Of a stretch of DNA of 64,000 nucleotides, positions 4,619-64,000 are shown piece by piece. The translations under genes and the position numbers were made by a program. The DNA lies in contig JAZLAV010000007.1 in assembly GCA_045613315.1 (NCBI GenBank), forward strand, positions 1,785 to 65,784, read 5' to 3'. Position 1 is the stretch's first letter, and each line of letters opens with the position of its first letter. Origin of the DNA: Candidatus Enterousia sp. Lineage in GTDB: Bacteria > Pseudomonadota > Alphaproteobacteria > Rs-D84. Under the pieces are notes generated by a model. It had not been told where the DNA came from and searched no databases. It was given only the letters and a program-made list of their open reading frames with translations.

Positions 4619-6826
4619 ATGTTTAATCCCGGTGATGTTGTAAAGGTTTTATTGCCAAATGTCGTAAATACTGGATACGACTATCGTCTTAATGCGCCGG
4701 CGGATATTGGTTCGTTTGTTGAATGTCGTGTTATGAATCGACCGTATATTGGTGTTGTGTGGGGTATTGGCGATTCCGGGTTGCCGGCCGATAAAATCAA
4801 AAGTGTTGTGCGCGTGTTGGATGCAAAATTGCCCGTGTGTGATTTACAATGGATAAAACGTATGTCTGATTGGACACTGATGACGCCGGGTGCGGTATTG
4901 AAACTTATTATAAATATCCCAGATGCTTTTTCGCCACCACGGATGGAACAATTGTATTCGTGGACAACAGATGAAAAAATCAAAATGACTGCCCCGCGCC
5001 AGGCGGTTGCTGATGCGTTTTCATCAAACGATAACGACCCAATGTCGGTAAATGATATTGTGAACATTGCACATGTGTCAAATGCGGTTGTGCGAACGAT
5101 GATAAAAAACGATATTTTGACCCCCGTGGATGTGCGTGCGGTGGAAAATAAAAATCGGTTTTTATATCGGTATCGTGATATGGGAACGGTTGTGTTAAAT
5201 TCGGAACAATCCACCGCCGCAAATAAAATTGGCGATGCAATTGATACCGGTGGTTTTTCGGTGTTTTTGTTGGATGGGATTACCGGTTCTGGTAAAACCC
5301 AGGTGTATTTTGATGCGGCAATTCGTGCATATAATGCGGGAAAATCGGTGTTGTTGATGATGCCGGAAATTGCGTTGACTGCACAATTTATGTCGCGGTT
5401 TGAATCACGGTTCGGGGCCGCGCCCGTTGTGTGGCACAGCAATTTAACCGCGGCGCGTCGTCGTGAAATATGGCGCGGGGTGTTAAGCGGTGAAATACGT
5501 GTTGTCGTTGGTACGCGCAGTGCACTGTTTTTGCCGTGGCAAAATTTGGGTCTGATTGTTGTTGATGAAGAACATGATACATCATATAAACAGGAAGATA
5601 TGGGAAATTATCACGCGCGCGATATGGCAATTTTGCGTGCGGCGATTGCAGGTTTTCCGGTTGTGTTGGCCAGTGCCACCCCATCGGCCGAAACATTGGA
5701 AAATGTGGCAAATGGAAAATATACGGGGCTTAAATTAACATCGCGTTTTGGTGGTGCGACATTACCAAAAATCGAAACAATTGATTTGCGGAACAATCGG
5801 CCGGAACCATACAAAACATCCATCACAGATGACGCGCCAGAAATTGCGGGTGCGTTATCCGCGCCATTGTGCGATGCGATTGCCGACACACTGGATAATC
5901 ATCAACAAATTATGTTGTTCATAAATCGGCGCGGTTTTGCACCGATTGTGCAATGTAAAAAGTGCGGATGGACGGCGACCTGTCCGGATTGCAGTGTGGG
6001 TATGACATACCATAAAAGAATTGGAAAATTGTTGTGCCATATGTGTGGTCGTACCGAACCGTTACCGATTAAATGCGCAAACTGTGGCGGTGATGTGTCA
6101 ATGCGTGGAGTTGGAATTGAAAAAATTCAAGAAGAAATCATGGCGCGTTTCCCCACCGCGCGCACCGCAATCGTGTCCAGTGATACAATCGCATCGCGTC
6201 AGAGCCTGGAACGCATTGTTAATAAAATGGAATCGGGAGAAATCGATATTGTGATTGGGACACAAATTTTGGCCAAGGGACACCATTTCCCGAATTTGAC
6301 ACTGGTGGGGGTGGTGGATGCAGATATGGGGTTGTTTGGAGCCGATTTTCGTGCGGCCGAGCATACTTTCCAACAATTGTTCCAGGTTGCCGGTCGCGCG
6401 GGGCGTGGCGCATTTCCGGGACGCGTGCTATTACAAACATATCAACCCGAACATCCGGTGTTAAATGCAATCTGTGGTGCCAATCGTGATGAATTTATGG
6501 CGACCGATATGGCTGCGCGTCGCATGGCCAAAATGCCACCGTATGGCCAGTTGATTGCGCTGGTTATCGAAGGTGCGCGCGAAAGTGTGTTGCAAAAATA
6601 CTGTGCCGATTTGGCGGTCGTTGCCCCGAATATAAACGGTGGACGAATAATGGGGCCCGTGCCGGCCCAGATTTACCAGATTCGCAATTGGTATCGTATG
6701 CGTTTTTTGGTGTCGGGTGATGTGCGTGCAAAATTACAACCGATTGTTGCTGCGTGGATTGCGCGTGTAAAACAACCCACGAACATTCGTGTAAAAATTG
6801 ATGTGAATCCAGTTAATTTTATGTGA
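4619..6826 (+). CDS. priA: primosomal protein N' (replication restart helicase)
   Basis: GITGSGKTQVY Walker A, DEEHD Walker B, Cys-rich zinc region CKKCGWTATCPDC...CHMCG, and GTQILAKGHHFP. Confidence 0.93.
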   Translation: MFNPGDVVKVLLPNVVNTGYDYRLNAPADIGSFVECRVMNRPYIGVVWGIGDSGLPADKIKSVVRVLDAKLPVCDLQWIKRMSDWTLMTPGAVLKLIINIPDAFSPPRMEQLYSWTTDEKIKMTAPRQAVADAFSSNDNDPMSVNDIVNIAHVSNAVVRTMIKNDILTPVDVRAVENKNRFLYRYRDMGTVVLNSEQSTAANKIGDAIDTGGFSVFLLDGITGSGKTQVYFDAAIRAYNAGKSVLLMMPEIALTAQFMSRFESRFGAAPVVWHSNLTAARRREIWRGVLSGEIRVVVGTRSALFLPWQNLGLIVVDEEHDTSYKQEDMGNYHARDMAILRAAIAGFPVVLASATPSAETLENVANGKYTGLKLTSRFGGATLPKIETIDLRNNRPEPYKTSITDDAPEIAGALSAPLCDAIADTLDNHQQIMLFINRRGFAPIVQCKKCGWTATCPDCSVGMTYHKRIGKLLCHMCGRTEPLPIKCANCGGDVSMRGVGIEKIQEEIMARFPTARTAIVSSDTIASRQSLERIVNKMESGEIDIVIGTQILAKGHHFPNLTLVGVVDADMGLFGADFRAAEHTFQQLFQVAGRAGRGAFPGRVLLQTYQPEHPVLNAICGANRDEFMATDMAARRMAKMPPYGQLIALVIEGARESVLQKYCADLAVVAPNINGGRIMGPVPAQIYQIRNWYRMRFLVSGDVRAKLQPIVAAWIARVKQPTNIRVKIDVNPVNFM

Positions 6827-40694: not shown

Positions 40695-40771
40695 GGGACC
40701 ATAGCTCAGTTGGCTAGAGCAACTGACTTTTAATCAGTGGGTCCAGGGTTCAAGTCCCTGTGGTCCCACCA
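40695..40771 (+). tRNA. tRNA-Lys (anticodon UUU)
   Basis: GGGACCATAGCTCAGTTGGCTAGAGCAACTGACTTTTAATCAGTGGGTCCAGGGTTCAAGTCCCTGTGGTCCCACCA folds as a cloverleaf with a CTTTTAA anticodon loop and encoded CCA. A terminator hairpin TGTACGCCCG...CGGGCGTACA follows. Confidence 0.93.
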
Positions 40772-47726: not shown

Positions 47727-48140
47727 TTTATATCCTTTTTTTGCAAAAAAAATACGCAAGCCAAATTCAGTTTGGACTTACGCTAATGCGGCTACACAAC
47801 CATAGGATATTATACAGATTAAAAAAAATAATTCAATTTTTTTGTTGGCGTATAAAAAACGAGCAACCCCCACAAACAAAAACTAGCTAGAAAATTTTGG
47901 ATATTTTGGTAAAGAAATAAAATTGTCATTGTGAAGTTATACCATAATCGTATAACAAATGTATAACTGCGAATATGTAATACGTGTTTAACATTTTGTT
48001 TATTTGTTGGGGGTATTATAGGGTAGTGCGGTGGAAAAGCGTATATAAAACATTGCCGTAGTTGTGGCGGTTTTCTGCGGAAAGTTTCAGATTTGTAATG
48101 ATGTGGGGAGGTGCCACTCTGGCCGTTAACGGGCCGGTCC

Positions 48141-48340
48141 AAAAAATCGTAAAAATTTTATACACGCCTTCGCAATGCCACAGAATCTGCGGGCTTTGGC
48201 AGGTGTAGTTGTGTATTCGCTGTGTAGCAGAATTTCATTGTGTAGCTTTTGTGTAGAAAAAATTGCGCTATCGTGTAGCCACATGTGCCAAAATATACAA
48301 AAACAAGCCATCTAAAAATCTACTATGCGGAATTTTTGTT
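48141..48340 (+). repeat. TGTGTAGC-box module I
   Basis: Six direct boxes start at 48202, 48210, 48221, 48239, 48250 and 48272 (GGTGTAGT, TGTGTATT, TGTGTAGC, TGTGTAGC, TGTGTAGA, CGTGTAGC), preceded by CCACAGAATCTGCGGG. It is about 85-90 percent similar by eye to modules II and III. Confidence 0.8.
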
Positions 48341-50533: not shown

Positions 50534-50759
50534 CCGACATACGGATTAACAGCAAGCCCGCAGGTTGCCCTGATTTTCTTGGGTTGCAGCGTGTAAGACG
50601 CATGAATCAGCCACTTTTTCGCATATAGCTGTGTAGCCATTGTGTAGCTGTTTTTTTATGTGTAGCTCCTGTGTAGCAAAAAAATTGCACTATCGTGTAG
50701 CCACATGTGCCAAAAACATACAAAAGAGAGAATGCACAAACCAACTTTTACGGAATATT
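50534..50759 (+). repeat. TGTGTAGC-box module II
   Basis: It begins CGACATACGGATTAACAG. Boxes start at 50630, 50641, 50659, 50670 and 50694 with 11/18/11/24 spacing. The tail CACATGTGCCAAAAACATACAAAAGAGAGAATGCACAAA is shared with module III. Confidence 0.8.
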
Positions 50760-51182
50760 TTATAAATGCGTAATTTCAATGTCTGGTAATATTTCTGCAA
50801 TATATTCTGCCGCTAATCGACGATGACACTGTATAGCGGTCTTTTCTGTGCACAGCAAACATATTCTATCAAGTTTAGATATATCGCAATTTTGTAACGG
50901 ATTGCGTTTTTGCAACAATTCACGATACATTTTTTCATATTCAGCCCAGGTGATCTTTTTATCTTTGTATCCTGCCAAGATATCTGATGTTGGCGCAAAC
51001 TCCGGGTGATATTCATAACGATTGCCCAGAACATACGCCAAATTATCACCGTTATAATATGGAACATAAGTACTGGTTCGCCATTGCCGAATATCCCACA
51101 CGCAACTTATGCGTGCCGCGTTCAGCACATCCAGAAATGCTTCTGGGCTTTTACCACTGAAACCAATCGTGAATATCTTTGT
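50760..51182 (-). CDS. DUF488-family protein (copy 2)
   Basis: MTKIFTIGFSGKSPEAFLDVL...ICLLCTEKTAIQCHRRLAAEYI. It is about 80-85 percent identical to copy 1 by eye. Confidence 0.75.
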   Translation of the reverse strand, partial: TKIFTIGFSGKSPEAFLDVLNAARISCVWDIRQWRTSTYVPYYNGDNLAYVLGNRYEYHPEFAPTSDILAGYKDKKITWAEYEKMYRELLQKRNPLQNCDISKLDRICLLCTEKTAIQCHRRLAAEYIAEILPDIEITHL

Positions 51183-52047: not shown

Positions 52048-52332
52048 ATGATGATAAAATCATTTAATTGTCGCGAAACGGAAAAGATCTTTCGGGGTGA
52101 ACGGTCTAAGAAATTCCCAACCGATATTCAGCGACGGGCATTTCAAAAATTGGCTATGCTGGATGCATCTGAAAATGTGGACGATTTGCGTATTCCTCCA
52201 TCCAATATGTTAGAAACCCTGTCTGGTGACCGTAAAGGGCAATGGTCTATTCGTATCAATCATAAATATCGGATTTGTTTTACATGGGCTGACCACGAAG
52301 CAAATAATGTTGAAATAGTAGAATATCATTGA
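52048..52332 (+). CDS. higB: HigB-type toxin (plasmid maintenance system killer, RelE/ParE superfamily)
   Basis: MIKSFNCRETEKIF...LETLSGDRKGQWSIRINHKYRICFTW...VEIVEYH matches the HigB pattern. Confidence 0.85.
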   Translation: MMIKSFNCRETEKIFRGERSKKFPTDIQRRAFQKLAMLDASENVDDLRIPPSNMLETLSGDRKGQWSIRINHKYRICFTWADHEANNVEIVEYH

Positions 52333-52399
52333 AAAAGCGCTTGACTTTTATGTGTTATATATTATATAATACATAACAAGATAAGCAAGAGGTATCAAA

Positions 52400-52729
52400 A
52401 TGTCTAATTATATCGATATTGACCATGTTGGAACAATTTTGCGTGAAGAGTTTATGGAACCGTTGGGGTTGTCCATGAATGCTTTGGCACGTGCGATTGA
52501 TGTCCCGGCAAACTATATTCATGGTATCGTGCATGGAACACGTGGTATTTCTGCTGCAATAGATTTGCGACTTACTCGTTACTTTGGTTTATCCCAAGGA
52601 TACTTTCTGCGTATTCAAACGCATTATGATATGGTGTTGGCCTCTCGTAATATAAGCGATAAAGAACTGGCAAAAATTATCCCACTTGACCGACCGGCAA
52701 ATAGTGATTTGAATGTTGCTGTGATGTAG
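52400..52729 (+). CDS. higA: HigA-type antitoxin (XRE HTH)
   Basis: HVGTILREEFMEPLGLSMNALARAIDVPANYIHGIVHGTRGISAAIDLRLTRYFG matches the HigA/VapI pattern. Confidence 0.85.
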   Translation: MSNYIDIDHVGTILREEFMEPLGLSMNALARAIDVPANYIHGIVHGTRGISAAIDLRLTRYFGLSQGYFLRIQTHYDMVLASRNISDKELAKIIPLDRPANSDLNVAVM

Positions 52730-53061: not shown

Positions 53062-53290
53062 GACATATGGATTAACAGTGGCCCCCAGAAAATCGCTAAA
53101 TTTTTATACGCGTCTTCGCAACGCCACAGAATCTGCGGGTTTTAGCGTGTGTAGCTGTGTATCCACTGTGTAGCAGAATTTCATTGTGTAGCTTCTGTGT
53201 AGCAAAAAAATTGCACTATCGTGTAGCCACATGTGCCAAAAACATACAAAAGAGAGAATGCACAAAGCAACTTTTACGGAATATTTTTGA
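53062..53290 (+). repeat. TGTGTAGC-box module III
   Basis: It begins GACATATGGATTAACAG, followed by CCACAGAATCTGCGGG. Boxes start at 53148, 53156, 53167, 53185, 53196 and 53220. Confidence 0.8.
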
Positions 53291-53297
53291 TGGTTAT

Positions 53298-53356
53298 TAC
53301 ACAAAAGTCGTCCGGAAAATGTGCTATAAATACACAAAAGTCGTCCGGAAAATGTG
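53298..53356 (+). repeat. two 26-bp direct repeats TACACAAAAGTCGTCCGGAAAATGTG (33-bp period), putative operator or activator sites
   Basis: Exact copies at 53298-53323 and 53331-53356, immediately upstream of a consensus promoter. Confidence 0.85.
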
Positions 53357-53363
53357 TTTTTGG

Positions 53364-53392
53364 TTGATTTTTAGTAAAATTTGATGTATAAT
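53364..53392 (+). promoter_or_regulatory. sigma70-type promoter of the AAA ATPase gene
   Basis: TTGATT (53364-53369), 17-nt spacer, TATAAT (53387-53392). Confidence 0.6.
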
Positions 53393-53414
53393 GCAGTCGG
53401 ATGAAAAGGGGAGA

Positions 53415-54731
53415 ATGATGAAAAGATATGCACTAAAACAATTAAAAGATTGGAAAAATAGCAAGATAAGAAAACCTTTGCTCGTTCAAGGGGCGAGACA
53501 GGTTGGAAAAACTTGGTTATTAAAAGAATTTGGCAGAGAGTGCTACGAAAATACAGCTTATGTTAATTTTTATGATACTCCAGAAGCACATAATGTATTT
53601 GAAGGATCTTATAATGTTGCAAATATAATTTCTGCTCTAGGATCAATCACTAATGAGCAAATTGTTCCAGGTAACACTTTAATAATACTCGATGAAATTC
53701 AAGAATGCGAACGTGCTTTAAACGCTTTAAAATTTTTCAAAGAAAATGCACCGCAATATCATATAGCTGTGGCTGGGAGCCTTTTGGGTGTTGCGCTAAA
53801 CCATAATAAAATGTCTTTTCCTGTCGGACAAGTGGATTTTATGACGCTACATCCATTAAGTTTTTGTGAGTTTTTAGAAGCGGTTGGTAAAGAGGTGTTA
53901 GCAAAAAATATACAAGAAAATAATATTGATGTGTTGCGTATGCTTCATAATGACAGTGTTCAATTACTAAAACAGTATATGGTTATAGGTGGTATGCCGG
54001 AAGCTGTCAAAACCTTTATAGAAACAAGAGATTACGAGAGTGCACAAAAGATTCATAAAGATATTTTGGTCAGCTATCAAAATGATTTCGCTAAATATAC
54101 AACAGGGAATAATGCGGCAAAAATAATGGCTGTTTGGAACTCTGTTCCTGTACAATTAGCAAAACAAACTAGAAAAACGAAAAGATTCTTTTTCTCAGAC
54201 GTATTCCCTGGTGCCAGATCTCGTAACTTAGAAGATGCGATAGAATGGTTAAGATTATCGGGGCTTATACACTTAGTTCCAAAAGTATCAAAGCCTAGTT
54301 TACCTTTGGCTAGTTATATAGAATCTGGAGTGTTTAAGGTATATATGATAGATACGGGCTTGTTAAGCACCATGTCTGGTTTAGCAGCAAAGACAGTTAT
54401 CGATGGCGATCGGATATTTCAAGAGTTTAAAGGTTCTCTGACTGAACAATACGTATTGCAAGAGTTGGTACTGAATGATATACGGTTGAATTATTGGGCA
54501 TCTGAAAGTGAATCAGAGATAGATTTTATGTTCCAACATGAAGGCGACATTGTACCAGTTGAGGTTAAGGCGAATATAAGTTTGCAGGCAAAAAGTTTGC
54601 ATGTTTATCGGCAGAAGTATAAACCAAAATTCTCTGTGCGAACGTCTTTAGCGGGGTACGAAGTAAACAACGGCTTGTACAATATCCCATTATACATGAT
54701 AGGGAATGTACTAAGAATTATTTCGGAATAG
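53415..54731 (+). CDS. AAA-family ATPase (AAA_14 plus DUF4143) with a PD-(D/E)xK-like C-terminus
   Basis: Walker A GARQVGKTW, Walker B LIILDEIQ, C-terminal SESEIDFMFQHEGDIVPVEVKAN. RBS is GAAAAGGGGAGA. Confidence 0.75.
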   Translation: MMKRYALKQLKDWKNSKIRKPLLVQGARQVGKTWLLKEFGRECYENTAYVNFYDTPEAHNVFEGSYNVANIISALGSITNEQIVPGNTLIILDEIQECERALNALKFFKENAPQYHIAVAGSLLGVALNHNKMSFPVGQVDFMTLHPLSFCEFLEAVGKEVLAKNIQENNIDVLRMLHNDSVQLLKQYMVIGGMPEAVKTFIETRDYESAQKIHKDILVSYQNDFAKYTTGNNAAKIMAVWNSVPVQLAKQTRKTKRFFFSDVFPGARSRNLEDAIEWLRLSGLIHLVPKVSKPSLPLASYIESGVFKVYMIDTGLLSTMSGLAAKTVIDGDRIFQEFKGSLTEQYVLQELVLNDIRLNYWASESESEIDFMFQHEGDIVPVEVKANISLQAKSLHVYRQKYKPKFSVRTSLAGYEVNNGLYNIPLYMIGNVLRIISE

Positions 54732-55372
54732 TTTGCTATTGCGTTTATCTGCTTCTTCTGTAGAACAAAGGTTTGCTTCTGCATAATTACGGCTGTCACA
54801 AAAGTCGTCACAGTCCCATTCTAGCCCACGATCAAATTGGTCGCGTGGAGTTAACTTTGGTTTAAACGTTGAAAAAGATTGGTGCCTATCCGGTATTGCT
54901 CGATATCTTAGCATACACATCTGATCGCACAGTTTTTGTTGTCGCACATGGTTATATCTGGCATTTTTGTCTCCTTTGCTGTGTGTATTAGCAGGTTAAG
55001 TTGGTTTAATCAACATAAAACACACTTATTTTTGCGCTGGTATTTTTATAGAAAAAAGCACACATTTTTCTATAAAAATCGATTCGTTTGAAAGTGATAA
55101 TTTTTTTGTTGGGTGACGCCGATGAACAAATTTTATAAAATTTAACAAAACTGTATTTAGATGCGTTTGAATATGCTTTTATATGCTTTTGATACATTAT
55201 GATACAATTTCATTGCTAAAAAAAGTTATATTTTCTGCGGCTTTTACAAGACTTTTATTTTTTAGCATGCTATAATTTGCATGTAAGGATATCAAAAATT
55301 GCTGTGAGTTTAGATGATACTTTATAGCGTTTTTGAACCGAACAAAACCATCAAAACCCAAAGGAGAAAAAC

Positions 55373-55636
55373 ATGGAACATGAGTTCTTGAATTATGGGG
55401 GGATGGAGAGAGAAGAAACAGATTACAGATTCATAAATATAAAGGAAGACGTTTTGGAAGGTAGACTTCTTAAACCAAGAGAAGCGGCTGCATATCTCGG
55501 ATCATCTGTTTCGGCATTAAGCCAATATCGTGCGCTGGGGATTGGACCAGAATACTTCAAAGTCGGCAAAATGGTACGATATCGCAGGTCTGATATAGAC
55601 AAGTGGCTTGAGCAGAAGAAAAGCAGCAAAAAATAG
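55373..55636 (+). CDS. AlpA/excisionase-family HTH protein
   Basis: LLKPREAAAYLGSSVSALSQYRALGIGPEYFKVGKMVRYRRSDIDKWL. It lies directly upstream of the integrase. An extended -10 TGCTATAAT sits at about 55267-55275. Confidence 0.65.
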   Translation: MEHEFLNYGGMEREETDYRFINIKEDVLEGRLLKPREAAAYLGSSVSALSQYRALGIGPEYFKVGKMVRYRRSDIDKWLEQKKSSKK

Positions 55637-55702
55637 TTGTTTCTACTGGATATTCCGTATTTATCGTGCATTGTTGTGTAGCTGTAACAAAGGAGTACAC
55701 AT

Positions 55703-56911
55703 ATGGCAGAACAATGGAAATGTTATACCAAGGCGTTTCGCGATACATGGATACGTCTGTTAAATTCGGATATCAATTTGCAGGTCAGTGATGGGACAAT
55801 ACCGGGGCTTTTCCTGCGATATTCGGCGGCAACACGCGCCATTAGGTTTTTTCTGGGCTGTAAAATCGATAACAAGAAATGTAATTTATATATTGGGCGA
55901 TATAACGATTATTCAATCAAAGATATTCGCGATATGGCGTGGAATATGCGACACCAGCTTGCCCAGGGACATGATCCACGTCGTGAGAAAATAGAACAAC
56001 AAATGAAAGAAAAAGAGGCTCTTGGCGAAAAATTCCAAGACCTTTTCCCGCAATATATGGATAAATATTCCAAGATTTATAAGAAACCAAGAACACAAGA
56101 TTCCAACTGGGGACAATATCGACTTTATATCGGCCCGCTATTTGGCAAGATGTACATGCGTCAGATAGAAGAAAAGCATGTAATGGACGCTTATACCAAA
56201 TGGGTAAAAAGGACGTCGTTTTCAACAGCCAACAAAGCATTATCACTATTATCTAACTTTTGGGACTGGTGCGAAATGTACAAATACGTAGATCGCAATA
56301 CAAACCCTTGCAAATATGTCCGCAAGGGCGCAAATAAAGTTTATAAACCGCAAATATTGGATCAAGAAGGATACAGGGCATTATCGCATGCGCTGGATGT
56401 TGGACCAGAAGTGTCTAAGATGCATCCGCGTTTGTTCAATGCATTGCGAGTGTTGATGCTAACTGGCTGTCGTGCATCTGAAATCACAGGACTAGAAGTG
56501 GACGAGCTTGTCCTTATGCATAAAGTGATACATTTGAAAGACAGTAAAACAGGAGCCCGAGATGTGAAACTGTCTGATGCGGTTATACCATATTTACAAA
56601 CTGCGTTGGATGAAGCTGTTGCACTAGGTAGCAAATATGTATTCCCAGGTGTTGGTAATATACGACGTCCGATAAATAATATCCGCAAACCGTTTGAATG
56701 GGCGCTTGAATATGCAAAGTTGCCACACATGCGGATACACGACCTGAGACACTCGTTCATCAGTATGGGGGCGAATATCGGCGAAAATATGGCCGCCATG
56801 AAGGAGGCAGCAGGCCACAGTCGCATAACCACTACCGAAGGCTATACTCATATCATGGACAGCAGTACTTACAAAGCCATCAATAACGTTGCTAATGCAA
56901 TATGTGGTTAA
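55703..56911 (+). CDS. int: tyrosine site-specific integrase (P4-like)
   Basis: C-terminal catalytic region TGCRASEI, HDLRHSFISMGAN and GHSRITTTEGYTH. A TGTGTAGC box (55675-55682) lies 20 bp upstream of the ATG. Confidence 0.9.
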   Translation: MAEQWKCYTKAFRDTWIRLLNSDINLQVSDGTIPGLFLRYSAATRAIRFFLGCKIDNKKCNLYIGRYNDYSIKDIRDMAWNMRHQLAQGHDPRREKIEQQMKEKEALGEKFQDLFPQYMDKYSKIYKKPRTQDSNWGQYRLYIGPLFGKMYMRQIEEKHVMDAYTKWVKRTSFSTANKALSLLSNFWDWCEMYKYVDRNTNPCKYVRKGANKVYKPQILDQEGYRALSHALDVGPEVSKMHPRLFNALRVLMLTGCRASEITGLEVDELVLMHKVIHLKDSKTGARDVKLSDAVIPYLQTALDEAVALGSKYVFPGVGNIRRPINNIRKPFEWALEYAKLPHMRIHDLRHSFISMGANIGENMAAMKEAAGHSRITTTEGYTHIMDSSTYKAINNVANAICG

Positions 56912-56970
56912 TTGTGCGCTGGTGCATCGTGGTGAGTCGCTTTTACCCCTTTTGGGGCTTTTTATTTAGG

Positions 56971-57104
56971 GGGTAACGGCGAGCGCAACACCTTGTCACA
57001 CACAGCAGTCCAAAATGTGTTCGCAGTTCGCACTTTGGGGTTGTAAACCGCAGAAATCTAAGAAATATGGGGTGCGAACACATGCGAACACCTAGTGCGA
57101 ACAC
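56971..57104 (+). repeat. iteron cassette A (unit GTTCGCAC)
   Basis: GGGTAACGGCGAGCGC (56971-56986); GTTCGCAGTTCGCAC (57019-57033); about 38-bp spacer containing CGCAGAAATCT; inverted GTGCGAAC at 57072, TGCGAAC at 57083, GTGCGAAC at 57095. Confidence 0.8.
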
Positions 57105-57118
57105 ATATCATCAAATTA

Positions 57119-57403
57119 TTAAAAAGTATATTTGCGACCTTTGTTCTGGCCGGTGGCAGTCAAAAAGCCTTTATTTACCAAAACAGTAAACAATTGACGG
57201 ACTCGTTGGGGTGATTTACCAGTCATCCTTACCGCGTCTGCGGCGGCGATTTCACCTTTGCTAATAATGACTGCTGCGATGGTTACAAAGAACCTGCGTT
57301 CGGTATCGCTCAGCATATCGATAGATTTATCGCTAGTTATATCGCTAACTTTTTTATCGCTACTAGCGATATATTGGTCACAATTGGAATTTTTATCATA
57401 CAT
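57119..57403 (-). CDS. small winged-helix DNA-binding protein
   Basis: The C-terminal AADAVRMTGKSPQRVRQLFTVLVNKGFLTATGQNKGRKYTF is wHTH-like. It lies between iteron cassettes A and B. Confidence 0.5.
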   Translation of the reverse strand: MYDKNSNCDQYIASSDKKVSDITSDKSIDMLSDTERRFFVTIAAVIISKGEIAAADAVRMTGKSPQRVRQLFTVLVNKGFLTATGQNKGRKYTF

Positions 57404-57534
57404 AAATTTGTGCCTTTTCTTTGATTCTAACCCATTTTTACGGAAAATCTAGTTTTTTAATAATTGCATAACAGCCCTGTATCGTGATGTATCATCGAAT
57501 ATAAAAAGGTACTGTCGGGACATTTTTCTACTGA

Positions 57535-57664
57535 GGGTAACGGCGAGCGAGGCACTTCGCTAGCGTCAGGAATAAAAAAATGGTTCGCAGGTTCGCACTT
57601 TGGGGATTTATTGCGTAAAAACAAAGCATTAAGTGCGAACCTAAGGTGCGAACCAGGTTCGCAC
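57535..57664 (+). repeat. iteron cassette B (unit GGTTCGCAC)
   Basis: GGGTAACGGCGAGCG (57535-57549); GGTTCGCAGGTTCGCAC (57582-57598); spacer; inverted GTGCGAACC at 57633 and 57646; direct GGTTCGCAC at 57656. Confidence 0.8.
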
Positions 57665-57945
57665 CCTAAATACAAAACAAATTCTCTGATTTCAATTCTG
57701 AAATCAATACTGAAATCAGATATGATATCGTGAGTAATAGAAGAAAGAAGAAAAGAAAATAAAATATAAAATAAATAAAAATAAAATTAAAAGAAGAGAA
57801 AGAAGTAATGTGTGTTCAAATTGTTGAAAAATTGTTGAAAACTCACGTACATCTGTTGGTATAAGTTATAATGCTTTGCAATGTGTTTATAGCAATCTTA
57901 ATCAATAATAATGTCAATAATCTATGGTAATGTATTGCTTTGCAA

Positions 57946-58074
57946 GGGTGATTACTAGCGCAACACCTTGTCACACACTGCAACAAAAAATAGGTGCGCA
58001 GGTGCGCACTTTGGATATTTATTCCGTAAAAACAAATAACTAAGTGCGTACCAAGGGTGCGTACCAAGTGCGCA
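57946..58074 (+). repeat. iteron cassette C (unit GGTGCGCAC / GTGCGTACC)
   Basis: GGGTGATTACTAGCGC plus AACACCTTGTCACACAC, shared with cassette A; GGTGCGCAGGTGCGCAC (57993-58009); spacer; GTGCGTACC at 58044 and 58057; GTGCGCA at 58068. Confidence 0.8.
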
Positions 58075-58113
58075 TCAAAACAAAAAAGGTACTGTGACGG
58101 AAGTTTTTATCAA

Positions 58114-58251
58114 GGGTAACGGCGAGCGCGGCACCTCGCTACACACAGAAATAAATTTTAAGCCGCAGGCCGCACTTTTTCTTTCTGTGTTGCAGAAATC
58201 TGGGATTTTAGTGCGGCTTTGTGCCGCGGCAGTGCCGCACTTATGCCGCAC
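58114..58251 (+). repeat. iteron cassette D (unit GCCGCAC)
   Basis: GGGTAACGGCGAGCGC (58114-58129); GCCGCAGGCCGCAC (58162-58175); spacer with TGCAGAAATCT; GTGCGGC at 58211, GTGCCGC at 58221, GTGCCGCAC at 58232, TGCCGCAC at 58244. Confidence 0.8.
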
Positions 58252-58602
58252 CAACACCTTAAATTAGCCTGAAATTAGACTTGATATTAGCGGTAAAGAT
58301 AAAGAAAAGTAGTATAGAAAAAGATAATGATAAAGATAAAAAAATTGATAATTGTAAAGAAAAAGAAAGTAGTATATACCGGTTCACAGTTGAAAATTTG
58401 TTGAAAAATTACGTGCATATGTTGGTATAAATTGTAATGTGTTAATCTGTTTTCAGATAAATCTATATCCAAAAATTTCTTATTTTTTTATCCAAATGTA
58501 TCGTGGTGTATCATAATGTGTCAACCCTAAAACGCGCAGAAAATAAGGACTTTACAAATCAAATTTTTTCATGCATGGTGGTGATGAAGCAAAGGATTTT
58601 TT

Positions 58603-58983
58603 ATGAACGATTTTGAGTTTGTTGTTGATTTGTTAAGCAAAACAGGAGCTGTTGGCAATTGCCTTATAGACCTGGAAATAACAAAACGGAATTTTATCGC
58701 TTTAAAGGGTAAAAATGATGTGCGGATACAAAAACAACTCAACATCAGTTTGCAAAGATATCACAATGAAATTGACGAACTGCACAGAATGGTTGGTGTC
58801 AATCTGCCATCACCAAACGAACCAATAAACCATAACCCCAGAAACGAATTGGAATACATAACTGACAGAATCCCAGCATATGTTGCTTTGCGTGAATTAA
58901 AAGGCGAAGTTAGAGAACGTACAATAGAATACCTGTTACCCAGATTATATCCAGAATGTAAAAACGAGGGAGACATAGGATAA
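58603..58983 (+). CDS. hypothetical protein (126 aa), first gene of the R-M-like operon
   Basis: RBS AAAGGATTTTTT before the ATG. No family recognised. Confidence 0.55.
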   Translation: MNDFEFVVDLLSKTGAVGNCLIDLEITKRNFIALKGKNDVRIQKQLNISLQRYHNEIDELHRMVGVNLPSPNEPINHNPRNELEYITDRIPAYVALRELKGEVRERTIEYLLPRLYPECKNEGDIG

Positions 58984-59011
58984 TATGGGATGTTCTACTT
59001 GACTTTATCCC

Positions 59012-60040
59012 TTGTTTTGGGCTAAGTTTTTAAGAAAGGAAAGGTTAGATCTCGTGGAATATGAAATTGATGTAAAAGAGAACATGATTTTGCAAAAGTG
59101 GCCTGATTTATTGGGAATCCTTTTGCGTGACCATACCACGGGAAAAAACATATTCTGGGCTACGGATCTTTATGAACAACAATATGGCCACCGTTACGCA
59201 TTTCGTTCTCAAATAATGCCAGAGTTAATCACTGGTGAAAATGGCAACATTATTAAGCCGCGTGTTGCAAAAACGAAGAAAGCACAACAAGACAGAGTTA
59301 AAGATAAGGCTGAAGTTTTTACACCGGCATGGATTTGCAATAAACAAAACAACCTGATTGATAACGATTGGTTCGGTTATGAAGGTGTTTTTAATAACGA
59401 AAAAGATGATAATACTTGGATGGCCACCAAGAAGCCTGTTGTATTCCCAGAAAACAAAACATGGGTTGATTATGTTCGCGAATTGCGTTTAGAAGTTGCT
59501 TGTGGTGAAGCACCGTATCTTGTTAGCCGTTACGATATCACCACAGGCAAAAAAATAAAATTACAAAATAGAATTGGATTATTGGATCGTAAAATACGCA
59601 TAGTAAACGAAAACGCGGCCAGCGATAGTGAGTGGCTTGCGATGGTAAAATGGGCATTCAAAAGCACATATGGATACGAATGGCAAGGAGATAATTTATT
59701 ACTTGCTCGCGAAAATCTGTTGTTTACATTTATCGATTATTTTGAAGACAGATTTGGCAAAGAACCAGATCTGGATTTGTTAAAAGAAATAGCAGAAATA
59801 ATCTCTTGGAACATCTGGCAGATGGATGGCATCCGTGGTGTGCTGCCATGTACATGTTGTAATTCAAAATATATAGATTTGTTCGGCGAAAAGACAATGG
59901 ATTGTTGTCTTGGATGCAAAACGGGTGACATTCATAGCCATAACGGAAAGTACTGCTATATCGGTGATTGGAACAAAATGACATCGAAAGGCCAACCAAC
60001 AAGAATTAAATATATTTCATTACTAAAGGGTAAAAAATGA
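59012..60040 (+). CDS. methyltransferase-fold-like protein with degenerate motifs and a C-terminal Cys/His cluster
   Basis: AEVFTPAWICNKQNN resembles MTase motif X. RLEVACGEAPYLVS sits where motif I (LEPACGSGAFL) would be. There is no NPPY. The C-terminus reads CTCCNSKY...CCLGCKTGDIHSHNGKYC. The track start is TTG; GTG 59054 after GGAAAGG is an alternative. Confidence 0.6.
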   Translation: MFWAKFLRKERLDLVEYEIDVKENMILQKWPDLLGILLRDHTTGKNIFWATDLYEQQYGHRYAFRSQIMPELITGENGNIIKPRVAKTKKAQQDRVKDKAEVFTPAWICNKQNNLIDNDWFGYEGVFNNEKDDNTWMATKKPVVFPENKTWVDYVRELRLEVACGEAPYLVSRYDITTGKKIKLQNRIGLLDRKIRIVNENAASDSEWLAMVKWAFKSTYGYEWQGDNLLLARENLLFTFIDYFEDRFGKEPDLDLLKEIAEIISWNIWQMDGIRGVLPCTCCNSKYIDLFGEKTMDCCLGCKTGDIHSHNGKYCYIGDWNKMTSKGQPTRIKYISLLKGKK

Positions 60041-63000
60041 GTAACTTTGAATCAGCTTTCAGTGGATATAAACTTATTTACGTTTTTAGCATGCCTTACG
60101 CAGATCACGAGGGCGCGTTAAAGATTGGTGAAGCAACAATAAACACTGATGGTTCGCCAGATGCTCTGACACCAAATTGCCAAGAGTTAAATGCTGCCGC
60201 TAACAAACGTATTAAGCAATATACACAAACAGCAGGCCTGAGGTACGATTTGTTATACACAGAACTTGCTAAGACAAACGCTGGTAAGGCTTTTTCTGAT
60301 CATGATGTTCATAAAGTTTTAAATCGTTCAAACATAAAGAAAAAACAATTTGAAGAAGTTGATGGATCTAAAGAATGGTATATAGTTGGTTTGGATGTTG
60401 TCAAAAATGCGATACAAGCCGTTAAAGAAGATAGAAAATCATTAGATCCGAACGAAGTGATTTCGTCTTGTACACCAATTCATTTGCGTGATGAACAGAA
60501 AGATGCAGTAAAGAAGACAATTAAACGCTTCAAATCTGGACACAATCGTATGTTGTGGTACGCAAAAATGCGTTTTGGTAAAACTTTGACAGCAATGTCT
60601 TTAGTTGGCGAGCTTGGGTTAAAGCGCACGATAATTATTACACACAGACCGGTGGTAAAAGATGGTTGGTATGACGATTTTAAAAAGCTGTTTTGTGATA
60701 AACCAGAATATAAATTTGCATCTCGTACCGTTGGGGAAAATTTTGCAGATGTAGAACGTGATGCGAAGCACGATAGATGTAAATATTTGTATTTTGCGTC
60801 TATCCAAGATCTGCGTGGAGCAGAAGCCGCTGGTGGGAAATTTGATAAAAATGATGCCATCTTCAGTACCGATTGGGATATGGTCATTATTGATGAAGCA
60901 CACGAAGGAACTCAAACAGAACTTGGCAAAAACATAGCCGAATTGTTAGTCAAAGACAAAACATACTTGTTGCAATTGTCGGGTACACCGTTCAACTTGT
61001 TGGATAATATAGACGAGGACGAGGTCTATACCTGGGATTATATTATGGAACAACGTGCCAAAGCAGACTGGCATAAAAAACATCTTGGTGAACCAAATCC
61101 GTACGCATCATTACCTAAGATGAATATATTCACTTACGATATGAGCCAAATAGAGGGTGGTAAATATGGATCTTATACCGAAGATAAATATTTCAACTTT
61201 TCTGAATTTTTCAAGACCAAACCTAACGGTGATTTTGTTCATGAAGACGATATACGTGGTTTCTTGAACTTATTAGTGAATGATAAAACAGATAGCAATT
61301 ATCCTTTTTCTAAACAGGAATATCGTGATAATTTCAGACATTCTTTGTGGATGGTACCTGGCGTTAAAGAAGCTAAAGCACTAAGTAAATTGCTTAAAGA
61401 ACACCCTGTGTTTGGAAAGTTCAATATCGCTAACGTGGCTGGTGATGGTGACGAAGAAACAAACTTTAAAGATGCGCTAGATTTAGTGCGTAAAGCGATT
61501 ACAGATCATCCACAAGACACATATTCCATAACGATTTCTTGTGGTCGTTTAACAACAGGTGTAACTGTACCAGAATGGACAGCGGTGTTTATGTTGGCTG
61601 GTGCATACTCAACGGCTGCATCAACATATATGCAAACTATATTCCGTGTTCAATCTGCGGCAAATATCAATGGGCGTATCAAAGAAAATTGCTTTGTGTT
61701 TGATTTTGCACCGGATCGTACATTGAAATGTGTTGCGGAATCAGTTAAAGTTTCAACTCGTGCCGGTAAAACGCGTGCTACAGATCGTGTAATAATGGAA
61801 GATTTGTTGCAATTCTGCCCGATTATTTCGGTAACAGGTTCACATATGAACCCATATAATGTCAATGGTATGCTTGAACAGTTAAAGCGTGCGTATATTG
61901 ATCGAATTGTTACGCATGGATTTGAAGATCCAAACCTGTTCAATCGCGATATGTTGTTGCAGTTGGACAAATCGGCAGTTGAAAAATTTGACGCACTACA
62001 ACAATTGGTCGGAAGTTCCACGTCTAAAAGTTCTGACACAGATAAAGCAAAAAAGATTATTGTTACAGATAACGGCATGAATCCAGATGGTGCAAAACAA
62101 ACCAATCAGCCGCCGCAAACACCTCTAACAGATGCTGAACGTGCTGCGCTGGAAGAACGTAAAGAGGCTAAATCTAAACGTGAAAAGGCGTTAAAAGCTT
62201 TAAAAGGTGTTGCTATTCGTATACCCATGTTGATTTATGGTGCAGATATTGATGTGAACCAAGATATTGACTTGGAACAGTTTGTCGACATGGTTGATCC
62301 GATTTCTTGGGATGAATTTATGCCACGTGGTATAGATAAAGAAGTATTCAAACAATTTATTCCATATTTTGATCGTGATGCATTTATTGGTGCTGGTAAA
62401 GAGATACGGCAACGTATTAAACGTGCTGACCGTATGGAACCAACAACCAGAACGCGTTTTATGACCGCACTGTTCTCCACCTTTAAGAACCCTGACAAGG
62501 AAACAGTTTTAACACCATGGCGCGTTGTAAATATGCATATGGGTGATTGTTTGGGCGGATATAATTTCTATGACTCGGAATACAAAAATCCAATTCCAGA
62601 TACCGAAGATGTAAGGTATATGGACATCCCAGATGTCACAGACGAAGTGTTTGGGCCAAAAGACACCAAGATTTTAGAAATAAATTCAAAATCTGGATTA
62701 TATCCATTATACGTTACATATACAATTTGGCGCAAAAGATGTACGGAAAATAATATTGATATAACAAAATTAACCGAAGATGATACGTTGTTTGCCAAGG
62801 CTCTTGAAACATGGGATAGCGTTGTTCAGAATAATGTTTATATCATATGTAAAACTCAAATGGCAAAAAGCATTACACAAAGGACATTATGTGGGTATCG
62901 TGATGTAAAAATAAATGCACATGCTTTTGATAATTTGATTACAATGATTAAAGATGGTAAAAGTAATAAGTTTATAGAAAAAGCTACCTCTTGTGATACA

Positions 63001-64000
63001 TACAATTCTAAATGCAAGGAGAAGAATATGAAATTTAACGCAGTAGTAGGAAACCCTCCTTATCAGGTTAGTGATGGTGGTGGTACTGGAGATAGTGCAA
63101 AACCAATATATAATTTATTTGTAGATGCAGCTAAATTGTTAAACCCACAATTCGTATCTATGATTATGCCTTCTAGATGGTTAAAAAAGGGTAAGGGTTT
63201 AGACTCATTTAGAGCAGAAATGATGTCTGATACAAGAATACGGACAATTCATGATTTTGCTGACGAACATGAGTGTTTTCCAGGAGGTGTGCATATTGAT
63301 GGTGGTATAATGTTCTTTTTATGGGACAAGCATTATGATGGTAAAGTAAAATACTTATTCAAGCCGGCTAATGGTGAATTAGAGGTTTCTGAAAGGTTCT
63401 TAAAAACAGATCTTTCAAGCACGGTTGTGAGAGACGCCAGACAAATATCCATTCTAGAGAAAATAGCAAAACATAAAAAAACGTCATTTAGTCAGCTTGT
63501 ATCTATAAGAAATAATTATGGTTTTGCAACGGATTTATTCAATAGACCGCAAAATTATCCAGACGCACATCTTTGTTTGGAAAAACAAAACAAAAATTTT
63601 GTAAAAATATATGGCGTAAAGGGTAACAAAGGCGGAGCTAAACGTGTAATAGGCTATGTCGATAAAAATAGTATAAAAAAAGATTTGTCTTCAGTAAATC
63701 TGTATAAATTGTTCTTTTCTTATGCTTACTCAACTGGGGCAACTGTGCCACCGGAAATTATTGTTGGGAAACCAGGAGAAATTGCCACAGAAACGTTTTT
63801 ACGTATAGGACCATTTGATAATGAATTATATTGTAAGAACTGTTTAAATTACATGAAATCGAAGTTCTTTAGAGCATTGTTATTTTTTAACAGAATATCA
63901 AAAAATTCGTCACAGACTACTTTTGAACTTATACCTGTTCAAGATTTCACAGATAAGTCTGACATAGATTGGTCTAAATCTATTGCTGAAATAGACAAAC
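60037..64000 (+). CDS. fusion protein of T5orf172/GIY-YIG-like domain, SF2 helicase and gamma-class N6-adenine DNA methyltransferase (Type ISP-like); 3' end beyond the window
   Basis: Absent from the ORF track because it has no stop in the window. I read 1,321 codons without a stop from ATG 60037, which overlaps the upstream TGA. N-terminus: KLIYVFSMP..GALKIGEAT...DHDVHKVL...GSKEWYIV. Helicase: LWYAKMRFGKTLTA (motif I), VIIDEAHEG (II), LSGTP (III), TISCGRLTTGVTVPEW and QTIFRV (VI). Methyltransferase: ILEINSKSGLYPL (degenerate motif I) and FNAVVGNPPYQ (motif IV). Confidence 0.8.
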   Translation, partial: MSNFESAFSGYKLIYVFSMPYADHEGALKIGEATINTDGSPDALTPNCQELNAAANKRIKQYTQTAGLRYDLLYTELAKTNAGKAFSDHDVHKVLNRSNIKKKQFEEVDGSKEWYIVGLDVVKNAIQAVKEDRKSLDPNEVISSCTPIHLRDEQKDAVKKTIKRFKSGHNRMLWYAKMRFGKTLTAMSLVGELGLKRTIIITHRPVVKDGWYDDFKKLFCDKPEYKFASRTVGENFADVERDAKHDRCKYLYFASIQDLRGAEAAGGKFDKNDAIFSTDWDMVIIDEAHEGTQTELGKNIAELLVKDKTYLLQLSGTPFNLLDNIDEDEVYTWDYIMEQRAKADWHKKHLGEPNPYASLPKMNIFTYDMSQIEGGKYGSYTEDKYFNFSEFFKTKPNGDFVHEDDIRGFLNLLVNDKTDSNYPFSKQEYRDNFRHSLWMVPGVKEAKALSKLLKEHPVFGKFNIANVAGDGDEETNFKDALDLVRKAITDHPQDTYSITISCGRLTTGVTVPEWTAVFMLAGAYSTAASTYMQTIFRVQSAANINGRIKENCFVFDFAPDRTLKCVAESVKVSTRAGKTRATDRVIMEDLLQFCPIISVTGSHMNPYNVNGMLEQLKRAYIDRIVTHGFEDPNLFNRDMLLQLDKSAVEKFDALQQLVGSSTSKSSDTDKAKKIIVTDNGMNPDGAKQTNQPPQTPLTDAERAALEERKEAKSKREKALKALKGVAIRIPMLIYGADIDVNQDIDLEQFVDMVDPISWDEFMPRGIDKEVFKQFIPYFDRDAFIGAGKEIRQRIKRADRMEPTTRTRFMTALFSTFKNPDKETVLTPWRVVNMHMGDCLGGYNFYDSEYKNPIPDTEDVRYMDIPDVTDEVFGPKDTKILEINSKSGLYPLYVTYTIWRKRCTENNIDITKLTEDDTLFAKALETWDSVVQNNVYIICKTQMAKSITQRTLCGYRDVKINAHAFDNLITMIKDGKSNKFIEKATSCDTYNSKCKEKNMKFNAVVGNPPYQVSDGGGTGDSAKPIYNLFVDAAKLLNPQFVSMIMPSRWLKKGKGLDSFRAEMMSDTRIRTIHDFADEHECFPGGVHIDGGIMFFLWDKHYDGKVKYLFKPANGELEVSERFLKTDLSSTVVRDARQISILEKIAKHKKTSFSQLVSIRNNYGFATDLFNRPQNYPDAHLCLEKQNKNFVKIYGVKGNKGGAKRVIGYVDKNSIKKDLSSVNLYKLFFSYAYSTGATVPPEIIVGKPGEIATETFLRIGPFDNELYCKNCLNYMKSKFFRALLFFNRISKNSSQTTFELIPVQDFTDKSDIDWSKSIAEIDK

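Follow-up and report, generated by a model that had tools for sequence, protein, structure and literature searches.

Four cos-like cassettes with exchangeable repeat units on a satellite-like defence island of Candidatus Enterousia

Why would a small mobile island carry four copies of one elaborate repeat arrangement, with differing repeat units, within 1.3 kb? The question is raised by positions 56,971 to 58,251 of a 64,000-nucleotide stretch of DNA (the window) from Candidatus Enterousia sp. (contig JAZLAV010000007.1, positions 1,785 to 65,784 of the forward strand). A preliminary description, made from the sequence alone, had recognized four cassettes here (A to D) and proposed that they could be iteron-type replication origins, sites for regulatory proteins, decoys or structured RNAs. 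The four-cassette architecture is real, and all four lie where they had been placed. It is likely that the cassettes are phage-derived cohesive-end packaging sites (cos) of the lambda type, and that together they form an array addressed to several helper phages on a minimal, satellite-like defence island. The argument draws on homology to sequences at the terminase end of phage genomes, agreement with the position of a mapped genome end, the layout of lambda cos and the co-variation of the repeat units.

Architecture of the cassettes and their phage counterparts

Each cassette opens with a conserved head. The 15-nucleotide (nt) sequence GGGTAACGGCGAGCG occurs exactly at 56971, 57535 and 58114 and at no other place in the 64 kb, and for a 15-mer, three exact occurrences in the 128 kb of the two strands go far beyond what chance would give. 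The head of cassette C, at 57946, is a diverged form (GGGTGATTACTAGCG). Counted from the head, the cassettes span 56971-57112 (A), 57535-57676 (B), 57946-58087 (C) and 58114-58255 (D). The head contains a short dyad (GCGA-N10-TCGC). That the head is conserved had been noted in the preliminary description, but the conserved element begins about 28 nt further upstream in B and D, where the heptamer AGGTACT precedes the head by 28 and 27 nt, respectively; it is present in neither A nor C. Two abutting direct copies of a repeat unit (the left units) lie 46-65 nt past the start of the head in all four cassettes, namely TGTTCGCA/GTTCGCAC in A, GGTTCGCA/GGTTCGCAC in B, GGTGCGCA/GGTGCGCAC in C and GCCGCA/GGCCGCAC in D. 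Each pair is followed by CTTT, by an A+T-rich spacer of 32-38 nt and then by one to three inverted units at about +98 to +121, the right units being spaced 10-13 bp apart. A further direct copy closes B, C and D but not A, which has three inverted units. Among 66 distinct cassette sequences, the head is conserved more strongly than any other block; conservation peaks there and, where it is present (B and D), at the heptamer, while loops and spacers vary.

The same cassette is found at the packaging end of phages. A head pattern more specific than the bare 15-mer led to a contig in IMG/VR, and relatives of the small terminase (TerS) encoded beside it were then fetched. The pattern also brought to light many more island contigs in metagenomes. 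Exactly one cassette is present in each of the phage loci, all metagenomic: L170 (also handled as L141 and L416), L171 (L418), L249 (L419), L422, L448 and L449. Every copy consists of a pre-head region, the head, an A-run, direct units, a spacer and inverted units, that of L170 also ending with a final direct unit, and AGGTTCT or AGGTACT stands 28 nt before the head in all of them. In L170, L171 and L249 the cassette lies directly 5' of a gene for a ParB_N plus N6_N4 methylase, with a methylase-type open reading frame (ORF) of the same kind in L422, L448 and L449. The next genes in the first three loci encode a TerS of 159 amino acids (aa), a large terminase (TerL) of the lambda gpA type (GpA_ATPase and GpA_nuclease domains, E ~1e-85 to 1e-95) and a lambda-family portal. 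By blastn, cassette B matches the predicted cos regions of L170, L171, L249, L448 and L449 at 1e-21 to 1e-25, cassette A matches L422, L448 and L449 at 1e-15 to 1e-18 and cassette C has a match at 1e-11; the head and pre-head of cassette D match the phage cos regions. A scan of the genome collection with the bare 15-mer head gave at least 120 matches, and all 120 listed were chance matches. Neither PLSDB plasmids nor INPHARED phages gave a blastn match to the region.

The repeat units themselves recur in these phages. The unit set of cassette A closely resembles that of L448 and L449 (ATGTGTTCGCAGTTCGCAC ... GTGCGAACACATGCGAACAC ... GTGCGAACAC), A/B-type units are found in L171 and L422, and the unit type of cassette C is that of L249 (GGTGCGCAGGTGCGCAC ... 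GGTGCGCACC); L170 has a further type, GGTACGCA. Among more distant, G+C-rich phages a unit swap within the same array separates L173 from L181 and L264 (GGTTCGCAC versus GGTGCGCAC). The N-terminus of the phage TerS is a Cro/Nu1-like helix-turn-helix (HTH) domain, with a weak match to lambda Cro. The triad that opens its recognition helix is SDT or SDA in the four loci with GGTTCGCA (L418, L422, L448 and L449), TEG in L416, which has GGTACGCA, and YES in L419, which has GGTGCGCA. In this small sample of six loci, the correspondence suggests that the unit type tracks the TerS recognition helix. The preliminary description had proposed a search for a cognate HTH gene; a candidate for it, TerS, is present in the phages and not in the island.

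Isolated phages also carry homologues of this TerS. One is Rhodobacter phage RcKemmy (MW677517; E 7e-12, 29% identity), with the gene order ParB-like, three small genes, TerS, gpA-family TerL, gpW-like and portal. Phages of the RcC cluster, RcKemmy included, have defined ends with an 11-base 5' overhang (PMC8601537). The RcKemmy record starts with GGGGGCGGAAGCGCG, and its base 1 aligns with the cassette head GGGTAACGGCGAGCG. At +24 it has CTAGCGTGACAC, to be compared with CGCTAGCGTCAG or CGCTACACACAG at +24 to +26 in the cassettes, and a homopolymer run is followed by three direct GGTTTCCAC repeats at +45 to +80. At the right end AGGTTCT lies 28 nt before the terminus, at the place where the cassettes carry AGGTWCT. 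In a position-anchored test, both sequences were fixed at the end or head and shared 5-mers within +/-3 nt were compared with 5000 shuffles; the similarity to the RcKemmy junction was reached in 2 of the 5000 for cassette B, in 5 for L170, in 16 for L171 and in 370 for L448. RcKemmy and the cassette-bearing phages are alike in having homologous TerS, a gpA-family TerL and the same gene order, and the mapped end falls at the head position with the heptamer at -28. They differ in that the RcKemmy unit is GGTTTCCAC, in direct copies only with no inverted set, and in the G+C content of RcKemmy (64%). The IMG/VR contig ends of TerS relatives, taken as a proxy for termini, proved to be uninformative fragments.

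Lambda cos consists of cosQ, cosN and cosB, and cosB has the order R3-I1-R2-R1, with R2 opposite in orientation to R3 and R1 (PMC9026076). R3 lies at bp 50-65 and the IHF site between R3 and R2; initiation requires cosN and cosB, and termination cosN and cosQ (PMC9026076). A check of the lambda sequence places GGGTCCT 30 nt before the end. This heptamer is presumably cosQ. The cassettes correspond to this plan part by part. The heptamer of B and D, here called cosQ-like, lies 27-28 nt before the head. R3 has its counterpart in the direct units at +46 to +65, I1 in the 32-38 nt spacer, R2 in the inverted units and R1 in the final direct unit of B, C, D and L170. Spacers of the B/C type and of the phages contain the IHF-like motif WATCAANNNNTTR with one mismatch, at a constant position that directly precedes the first inverted unit; among these matches the N positions of the motif vary and its specified positions hold. 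The mean best mismatch is 1.8, as against 2.6 in shuffled sequence, with no match in A-type spacers and D-type spacers unscored.

The likeness extends to the relatives of lambda (21, phi80, N15 and Gifsy-1). The order and orientation of the parts agree, the first TerS site lies about 50 nt in, and cos is located 5' of the small-terminase gene; also common to both are a gpA-family TerL, a G+C-rich end or nicking region, and a cosN-type sequence common between phages with a phage-specific cosB. The likeness in sequence to lambda itself is no more than suggestive (GGGTCCT compared with AGGTWCT, and GGGCGGCGACCT with GGGTAACGGCGA). Unlike those of lambda, the R units of the cassettes are 8-9 bp long and doubled rather than 16 bp, and in the phages a ParB-like gene lies between cos and terS.

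The 8-mer was seen elsewhere in another setting. In L178, L179, L183, L190 and about 20 further IMG/VR prophage contigs, GGTTCGCAGGTTCGCAC is followed by two inverted copies of TGCGAACC inside an unrelated ORF, the N-terminus of which appears by eye to be like that of a terminase small subunit (DWEAIKREYCAGQLSIRALAEKYGVSDTAVRKRAKADEW). This arrangement would be pac-like, built on the same 8-mer.

Co-variation and exchange of the repeat units

The preliminary description held that the left and right copies change together, and a formal test bears this out. The window, related islands and phages supplied 13 distinct pairs of left and right units, which were compared with 500 shuffles. Complementarity between left and right units amounts to 97.1% of cells, compared with 86.3 +/- 2.2 after shuffling, and the covariation score is 0.391, compared with 0.178 +/- 0.032; for neither measure did any of the 500 shuffles equal the observed value. 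Shifts of register reduce the complementarity to 12-57%. The unit does differ between cassettes, as had been said, but mostly at one position of the 8-mer, with D also differing at position 2. The variable position is the third (GT-N-CGCAC paired with GTGCG-N'-AC), and all four Watson-Crick pair types occur there. If the cassettes are cos sites, left and right units would change together because all units in one cos must fit the same TerS.

The cassettes are also mosaic. One hairpin type is common to A and C and another to B and D, while spacer types group A with D and B with C, so that part of the concerted change of units results from block exchange between cassettes. B orthologues in two related islands (L133 and L137) have B heads joined to C-type units, and diverged islands contain further unit types (GTCCGCAC/GTGCGGAC). 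Several rearrangements end inside cassettes. Cassette B of L131 is without its hairpin and left units, cassette D of L137 is cut after the first unit, and in L133 the left units of C are fused to the last direct unit of D across a CCGCAC microhomology. In L140, cassette A is tandemly duplicated together with the gene for a winged HTH (wHTH) protein, the junction passing through the heads, and one island variant (L165) has a single cassette and no wHTH gene.

The island and its cargo

The conserved core of the island (55043-58254) contains, in order, alpA, int, cassette A, the wHTH gene on the other strand, cassette B, a segment called X1, and cassettes C and D (Table 1). In ten metagenome contigs examined the core is 93.6-97% identical and the four-cassette set is kept, with differing cargo. 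The exact 94-aa wHTH protein is indexed in 56 blocks of the metagenome collection and is encoded on contigs from many metagenomes, which were judged by sample names to be of rumen origin. More diverged islands, with wHTH proteins 59-80% identical, keep the arrangement. Homology between islands with different cargo stops at the last unit of cassette D, and the orientation of the cassettes is constant, such that packaging would run into the cargo. Cargo genes of related islands encode a KAP NTPase, type I/IIG restriction-modification systems, SNF2 helicases, AbiE, HipBA and Fic; 5' of the core lie differing toxin-antitoxin or Abi genes.

Table 1. Features of the island core and the adjoining cargo leader, with positions in the window
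Feature	Position	Strand	Remarks
AlpA-like HTH_17 protein, 87 aa	55373..55636	+	Pfam HTH_17 2e-10; PHROG 'excisionase and transcriptional regulator'
P4-type tyrosine integrase, 402 aa	55703..56911	+	Pfam Phage_integrase and Arm-DNA-bind_3
Cassette A	56971..57112	+	cos-like site without upstream cosQ-like heptamer; head 56971-56985
Cassette A units	57016-57033; 57034-57071; 57072-57106	+	direct (TGTGTTCGCA GTTCGCAC); spacer; three inverted, GTGCGAACAC-type
wHTH protein, 94 aa	57119..57403	-	between cassettes A and B
Cassette B	57507..57676	+	complete cos-like site; cosQ-like AGGTACT 57507-57513; head 57535-57549
Cassette B left units and spacer	57582-57598; 57599-57632	+	direct; spacer with IHF-like AAACAAAGCATTA
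Cassette B right units	57633-57641, 57645-57654; 57656-57665	+	inverted; final direct
X1	57677..57945	+	copy of phage segment: short iterons (TCTGAAATCA-type), A-rich tract, TGTTGAAAA repeats
Cassette C	57946..58087	+	cos-like, diverged head (GGGTGATTACTAGCG), no cosQ-like heptamer
Cassette C units	57993-58009; 58044-58052, 58057-58065; 58068-58074	+	direct (GGTGCGCA GGTGCGCAC); inverted GTGCGTACC; GTGCGCA
Cassette D	58087..58255	+	cos-like; cosQ-like AGGTACT 58087-58093; head 58114-58128
Cassette D units	58162-58175; 58211-58217; to 58252	+	direct (GCCGCA GGCCGCAC); inverted GTGCGGC; GTGCCGC/GCCGCAC copies
X2	58255..58470	+	second, more diverged copy of phage iteron and A-rich segment; varies between islands
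Conserved leader before variable cargo	58448..58602	+	81-92% conserved across islands with different first cargo genes

The island integrase is 57% identical to that of the single-cassette phage contig L170, in which alpA and int are arranged in the same way, and the 87-aa AlpA-like protein is a probable excisionase or activator of the island. These two are the only genes of the window or related islands homologous to phage genes there, and no gene for TerS, TerL or portal was found in either. The island has no structural or lysis genes, and its core no gene for a Rep, primase or helicase. The preliminary description was right in stating that no rep, primase or partition gene is present and that the only ORF nearby is that of the 94-aa wHTH protein. 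This protein has no match in Pfam, PHROG or NCBIfam, and its 64 homologues (59-97% identity) are all unnamed or annotated as hypothetical. An AlphaFold2 model (pLDDT 78) has a winged helix at residues 33-93, and the nearest folds are the MecI/BlaI, ArsR/SmtB and MarR repressors. Judged by this model, the protein is probably an island regulator of the repressor type rather than a packaging factor. A role like that of TerS or of the satellite protein Rpp was rejected, since searches by sequence and by fold both lead to winged helices of a generic repressor type. At its 5' end (57304-57375) the wHTH gene contains TATCGCTA repeats and a perfect palindrome (ATATCGCTAcTAGCGATAT), and the copy number of the 12-nt repeat differs among homologues (93-97 aa). 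This region may be an autoregulatory operator within the coding sequence.

The A/G-rich segments X1 and X2 both show homology to the interior of ORF206, a phage gene encoding 206 aa (L170 5051-5224; also in L171 and L422). The phage stretch (L170 5035-5240) consists of 5.2 tandem copies of the 12-bp TGAAATCAGATA, an A-rich tract and TGTTGAAAA repeats. Searches of Pfam, PHROGs and NCBIfam did not help to name ORF206 or the phage ORF158 and ORF186. From their sequence, X1 and X2 may represent a borrowed replication origin. The design of their source, with origin-like repeats inside an initiator-like gene, resembles that of lambda ori inside gene O.

Other repeats in and around the core may have regulatory functions. 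TGTATC-type repeats with a 10-bp period (TGYATCGTGRTGWATC) are present in the cargo leader at 58497-58526, and the motif recurs at 55191-55206 (minus strand), 56923-56938 and 57478-57495, which makes four matches compared with 0.35 expected. One site precedes alpA, one follows int, one falls in the promoter region of the wHTH gene and one in the leader; all are candidate operators for an island regulator. The leader also holds GGACTTTACA. A similar box (GGGACTTTACAC) occurs in L170 at 5925-6015, where it precedes a strong hairpin and a T-run in front of ORF186. Given the box in the leader, the cargo might be driven by a phage-type promoter. The cargo in the window (58603-64000) begins with ORFs of 126 and 342 aa, neither with a family match, followed, by homology to the related locus L127, by a ResIII/Eco57I-type enzyme of about 1335 aa that runs off the window.

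The left border of conservation, at 55043, coincides with an inverted repeat (TATAGAAAAA-N9-TTTTTCTATA, 55035-55075), and TGCGCTGGT occurs both at 55033 and just past the int stop codon (56915). No repeat was found that would make the tRNA-Lys gene at 40695 an attachment-site (att) partner. Left of the island are HigB/HigA (52048-52729) and a DUF4143 AAA ATPase (53391-54731). Three copies of a 150-200 bp repeat (48139-48340, 50615-50761 and 53085-53302), about 2.4-2.5 kb apart, flank small gene sets (DUF488 pairs, HigBA and a GH108 lysozyme). These pieces occur in other orders in related contigs, so the region left of the island appears to be variable in a cassette-like manner.

Three further candidates for the cassettes or for AlpA were tried and rejected. 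An integron attC array is at odds with a P4-type integrase that has an arm-binding domain and with a single ORF among four sites, which leaves no alternation of ORF and site; no further cassette follows multi-gene cargo in any locus. Mimicry of a tRNA gene or att site was rejected because the tRNA-Lys of the window is unlike the units and has no repeat. A Q-like antiterminator role for AlpA is not supported, as the Pseudomonas AlpA is a larger, 21Q-like protein unrelated to the 87-aa HTH_17 protein. The pre-head GGGAC/GGTA resembles the Pseudomonas AlpA binding element, but has the half-sites in the opposite order.

Packaging, alternatives and known satellites

An island without terminase, portal or capsid genes would depend on infecting or resident phages of the family described above. 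We infer that TerS binding, nicking of the head, packaging and transfer, and origin function of X1 and X2 are involved. In outline, a phage of this family would infect or be induced, and the N-terminal HTH of its TerS would bind the cassette whose units fit its recognition helix, with IHF bending the A+T-rich spacer. TerL, of the lambda gpA family, would nick in the head, corresponding to the cosN region, and so create cohesive ends, after which island DNA would be packaged rightwards through the cargo. B and D, with their cosQ-like heptamer, could also terminate packaging, while A and C would at most initiate it. AlpA and the integrase would supply excision and integration, and X1 and X2 might give helper-driven replication and hence concatemers. 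A more specific proposal, which we put forward tentatively, is that of a multi-helper satellite acting in cis only, in which four cos sites with at least three TerS specificities and two origin-like segments could allow several lambda-like phages to replicate and package the island.

A number of points weigh against the packaging interpretation. Unanchored local alignment of the RcKemmy junction with the cassettes is not significant, and with a TerS only 29% identical RcKemmy is a distant phage. Cutting at the head, whether in the phages or in the island, is a prediction from homology. Cassettes A and C have no cosQ-like heptamer and the head of C is diverged, so some copies may be relics or serve initiation only. 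The deletions and fusions in related islands (L131 B, L133 C-D and L137 D) indicate that selection on every copy is not strict. Searches of IMG/VR for a phage with D-type (GCCGCAC) or GTCCGCAC units gave only chance matches. The ParB-like protein may be the binder of the units, which always lie beside a ParB-like gene. We know of no precedent for an array of four cos sites, all pointing the same way, in as little as 1.3 kb. Terminases of the lambda type normally require a pair of cos sites separated by roughly one genome length, which leaves the packaging of a short island unexplained.

It is unlikely, but the best supported of the alternatives, that the array, though built of the same terminase recognition sites, is instead a decoy or sink for defence, which would titrate the small terminase of several phages or turn cutting and packaging towards host or island DNA and so lower the phage burst. 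The cargo differs between islands and includes defence genes, the missing termination element of A and C would suit a sink better than a productive cos, and redirection of TerS is a means by which known satellites disturb the packaging of their helpers (PMC9026076). A decoy would, however, need neither integrase and AlpA nor a conserved cosQ-like element nor origin-like X copies, and the constant orientation, with packaging directed towards the cargo, is not what it would call for. Among the options of the preliminary description, sites for paralogous proteins and decoys came closest; the idea of differently addressed repeats around a bendable core also fits what was found.

It is very unlikely that the cassettes are non-functional leftovers of prophage recombination or decay, kept by linkage to the integrase. 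The mosaic hairpin and spacer types, the diverged head of C, the deletions, fusion and duplication in some islands and the variant with a single cassette would all be in keeping with decay. Against this, the four-cassette set is 93.6-97% identical in the examined islands despite unrelated cargo, the head and cosQ-like heptamer are the most conserved parts, and unit complementarity is kept in every type.

Still less probable is a role as plus-strand leader RNAs, in which alternative hairpins would act by attenuation or antitermination on transcription that reads from int or the X promoters into the cargo. The cassettes are co-directional with int and the cargo, fold z-scores range from -1.4 to -3.9, and for many variants folding is slightly favoured on the plus strand, where G.U pairs replace A.C, although this asymmetry is weak. 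In the L170 copy, a hairpin formed by the final inverted and direct units, with TTTTT after it, immediately precedes the start codon of the methylase gene. Repeated protein sites predict the same complementarity, however, and an RNA would leave the match to a mapped end and the lambda cos geometry unexplained. Promoter-like and terminator-like sites are no commoner than in shuffles, and the window cassettes have no U-run after their hairpins on the plus strand, on which grounds an attenuator or terminator was rejected. No Rfam family matches the cassettes; searches of the window with gathering thresholds, and of the region with E values allowed up to 10, yielded three tRNAs elsewhere and otherwise matches at chance level.

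The iteron-type origins first proposed, for a Rep supplied in trans by a helper, would suit an island without rep in which repeat sets flank an A+T-rich core, but they are the least probable reading of all, as the cassette of the phages is found at their terminase end, where no replication gene adjoins it, its head aligns with the RcKemmy end, the spacing is that of lambda cos, the left units abut at 8-9 bp rather than at a helical phasing of about 11 or 22 bp, and it is the separate X1 and X2 that correspond to the tandem 12-bp iterons and A-rich tract of the phages.

If the cos interpretation is correct, a defence island widens its range of carrier phages by collecting packaging signals, without a hijacking protein. 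Such a master-key arrangement for spreading defence genes would bear on how anti-phage systems pass between strains in dense communities such as that of the rumen. The matched TerS recognition helices and 8-bp sites (TT, TG, TA, TC and CC variants) would provide a natural set for dissecting the specificity of gpA-type terminases, and the signature AGGTWCT-N21-GGGTAACGGCGAGCG with its repeat units could serve to search metagenomes for cos sites and for islands bearing them.

Satellites that carry cos are already known; a limited phrase search of the literature found no description of a tandem array with different cosB specificities. The island resembles the cos-type satellites (phage-inducible chromosomal islands, or PICIs, of the EcCICFT073 type, SaPIbov5 and P4) in being an integrase/AlpA island without morphogenesis genes that bears a cos of helper type and would rely on the helper terminase (in part PMC9026076). 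As in a PICI, integrase and AlpA are present, structural and lysis genes are absent and the packaging signal is of the helper type, but the island has no replication module of its own. The 'phage-inducible chromosomal minimalist islands' (PICMIs) of Vibrio are similar in their very small gene set (int, alpA) and near-total reliance on the helper. PICMIs encode a primase or replication function and use virulent helpers, and we know of no cos array described for them. Known cos-type satellites carry one cos and encode replication genes and often capsid-size genes; the cosB of PICIs is without R repeats, and the island protein Rpp is needed to redirect TerS. The island described here, by contrast, encodes no Rpp-like or Rep protein and has four cos-like sites with R units of the phage type and at least three specificities, placed in front of defence cargo.

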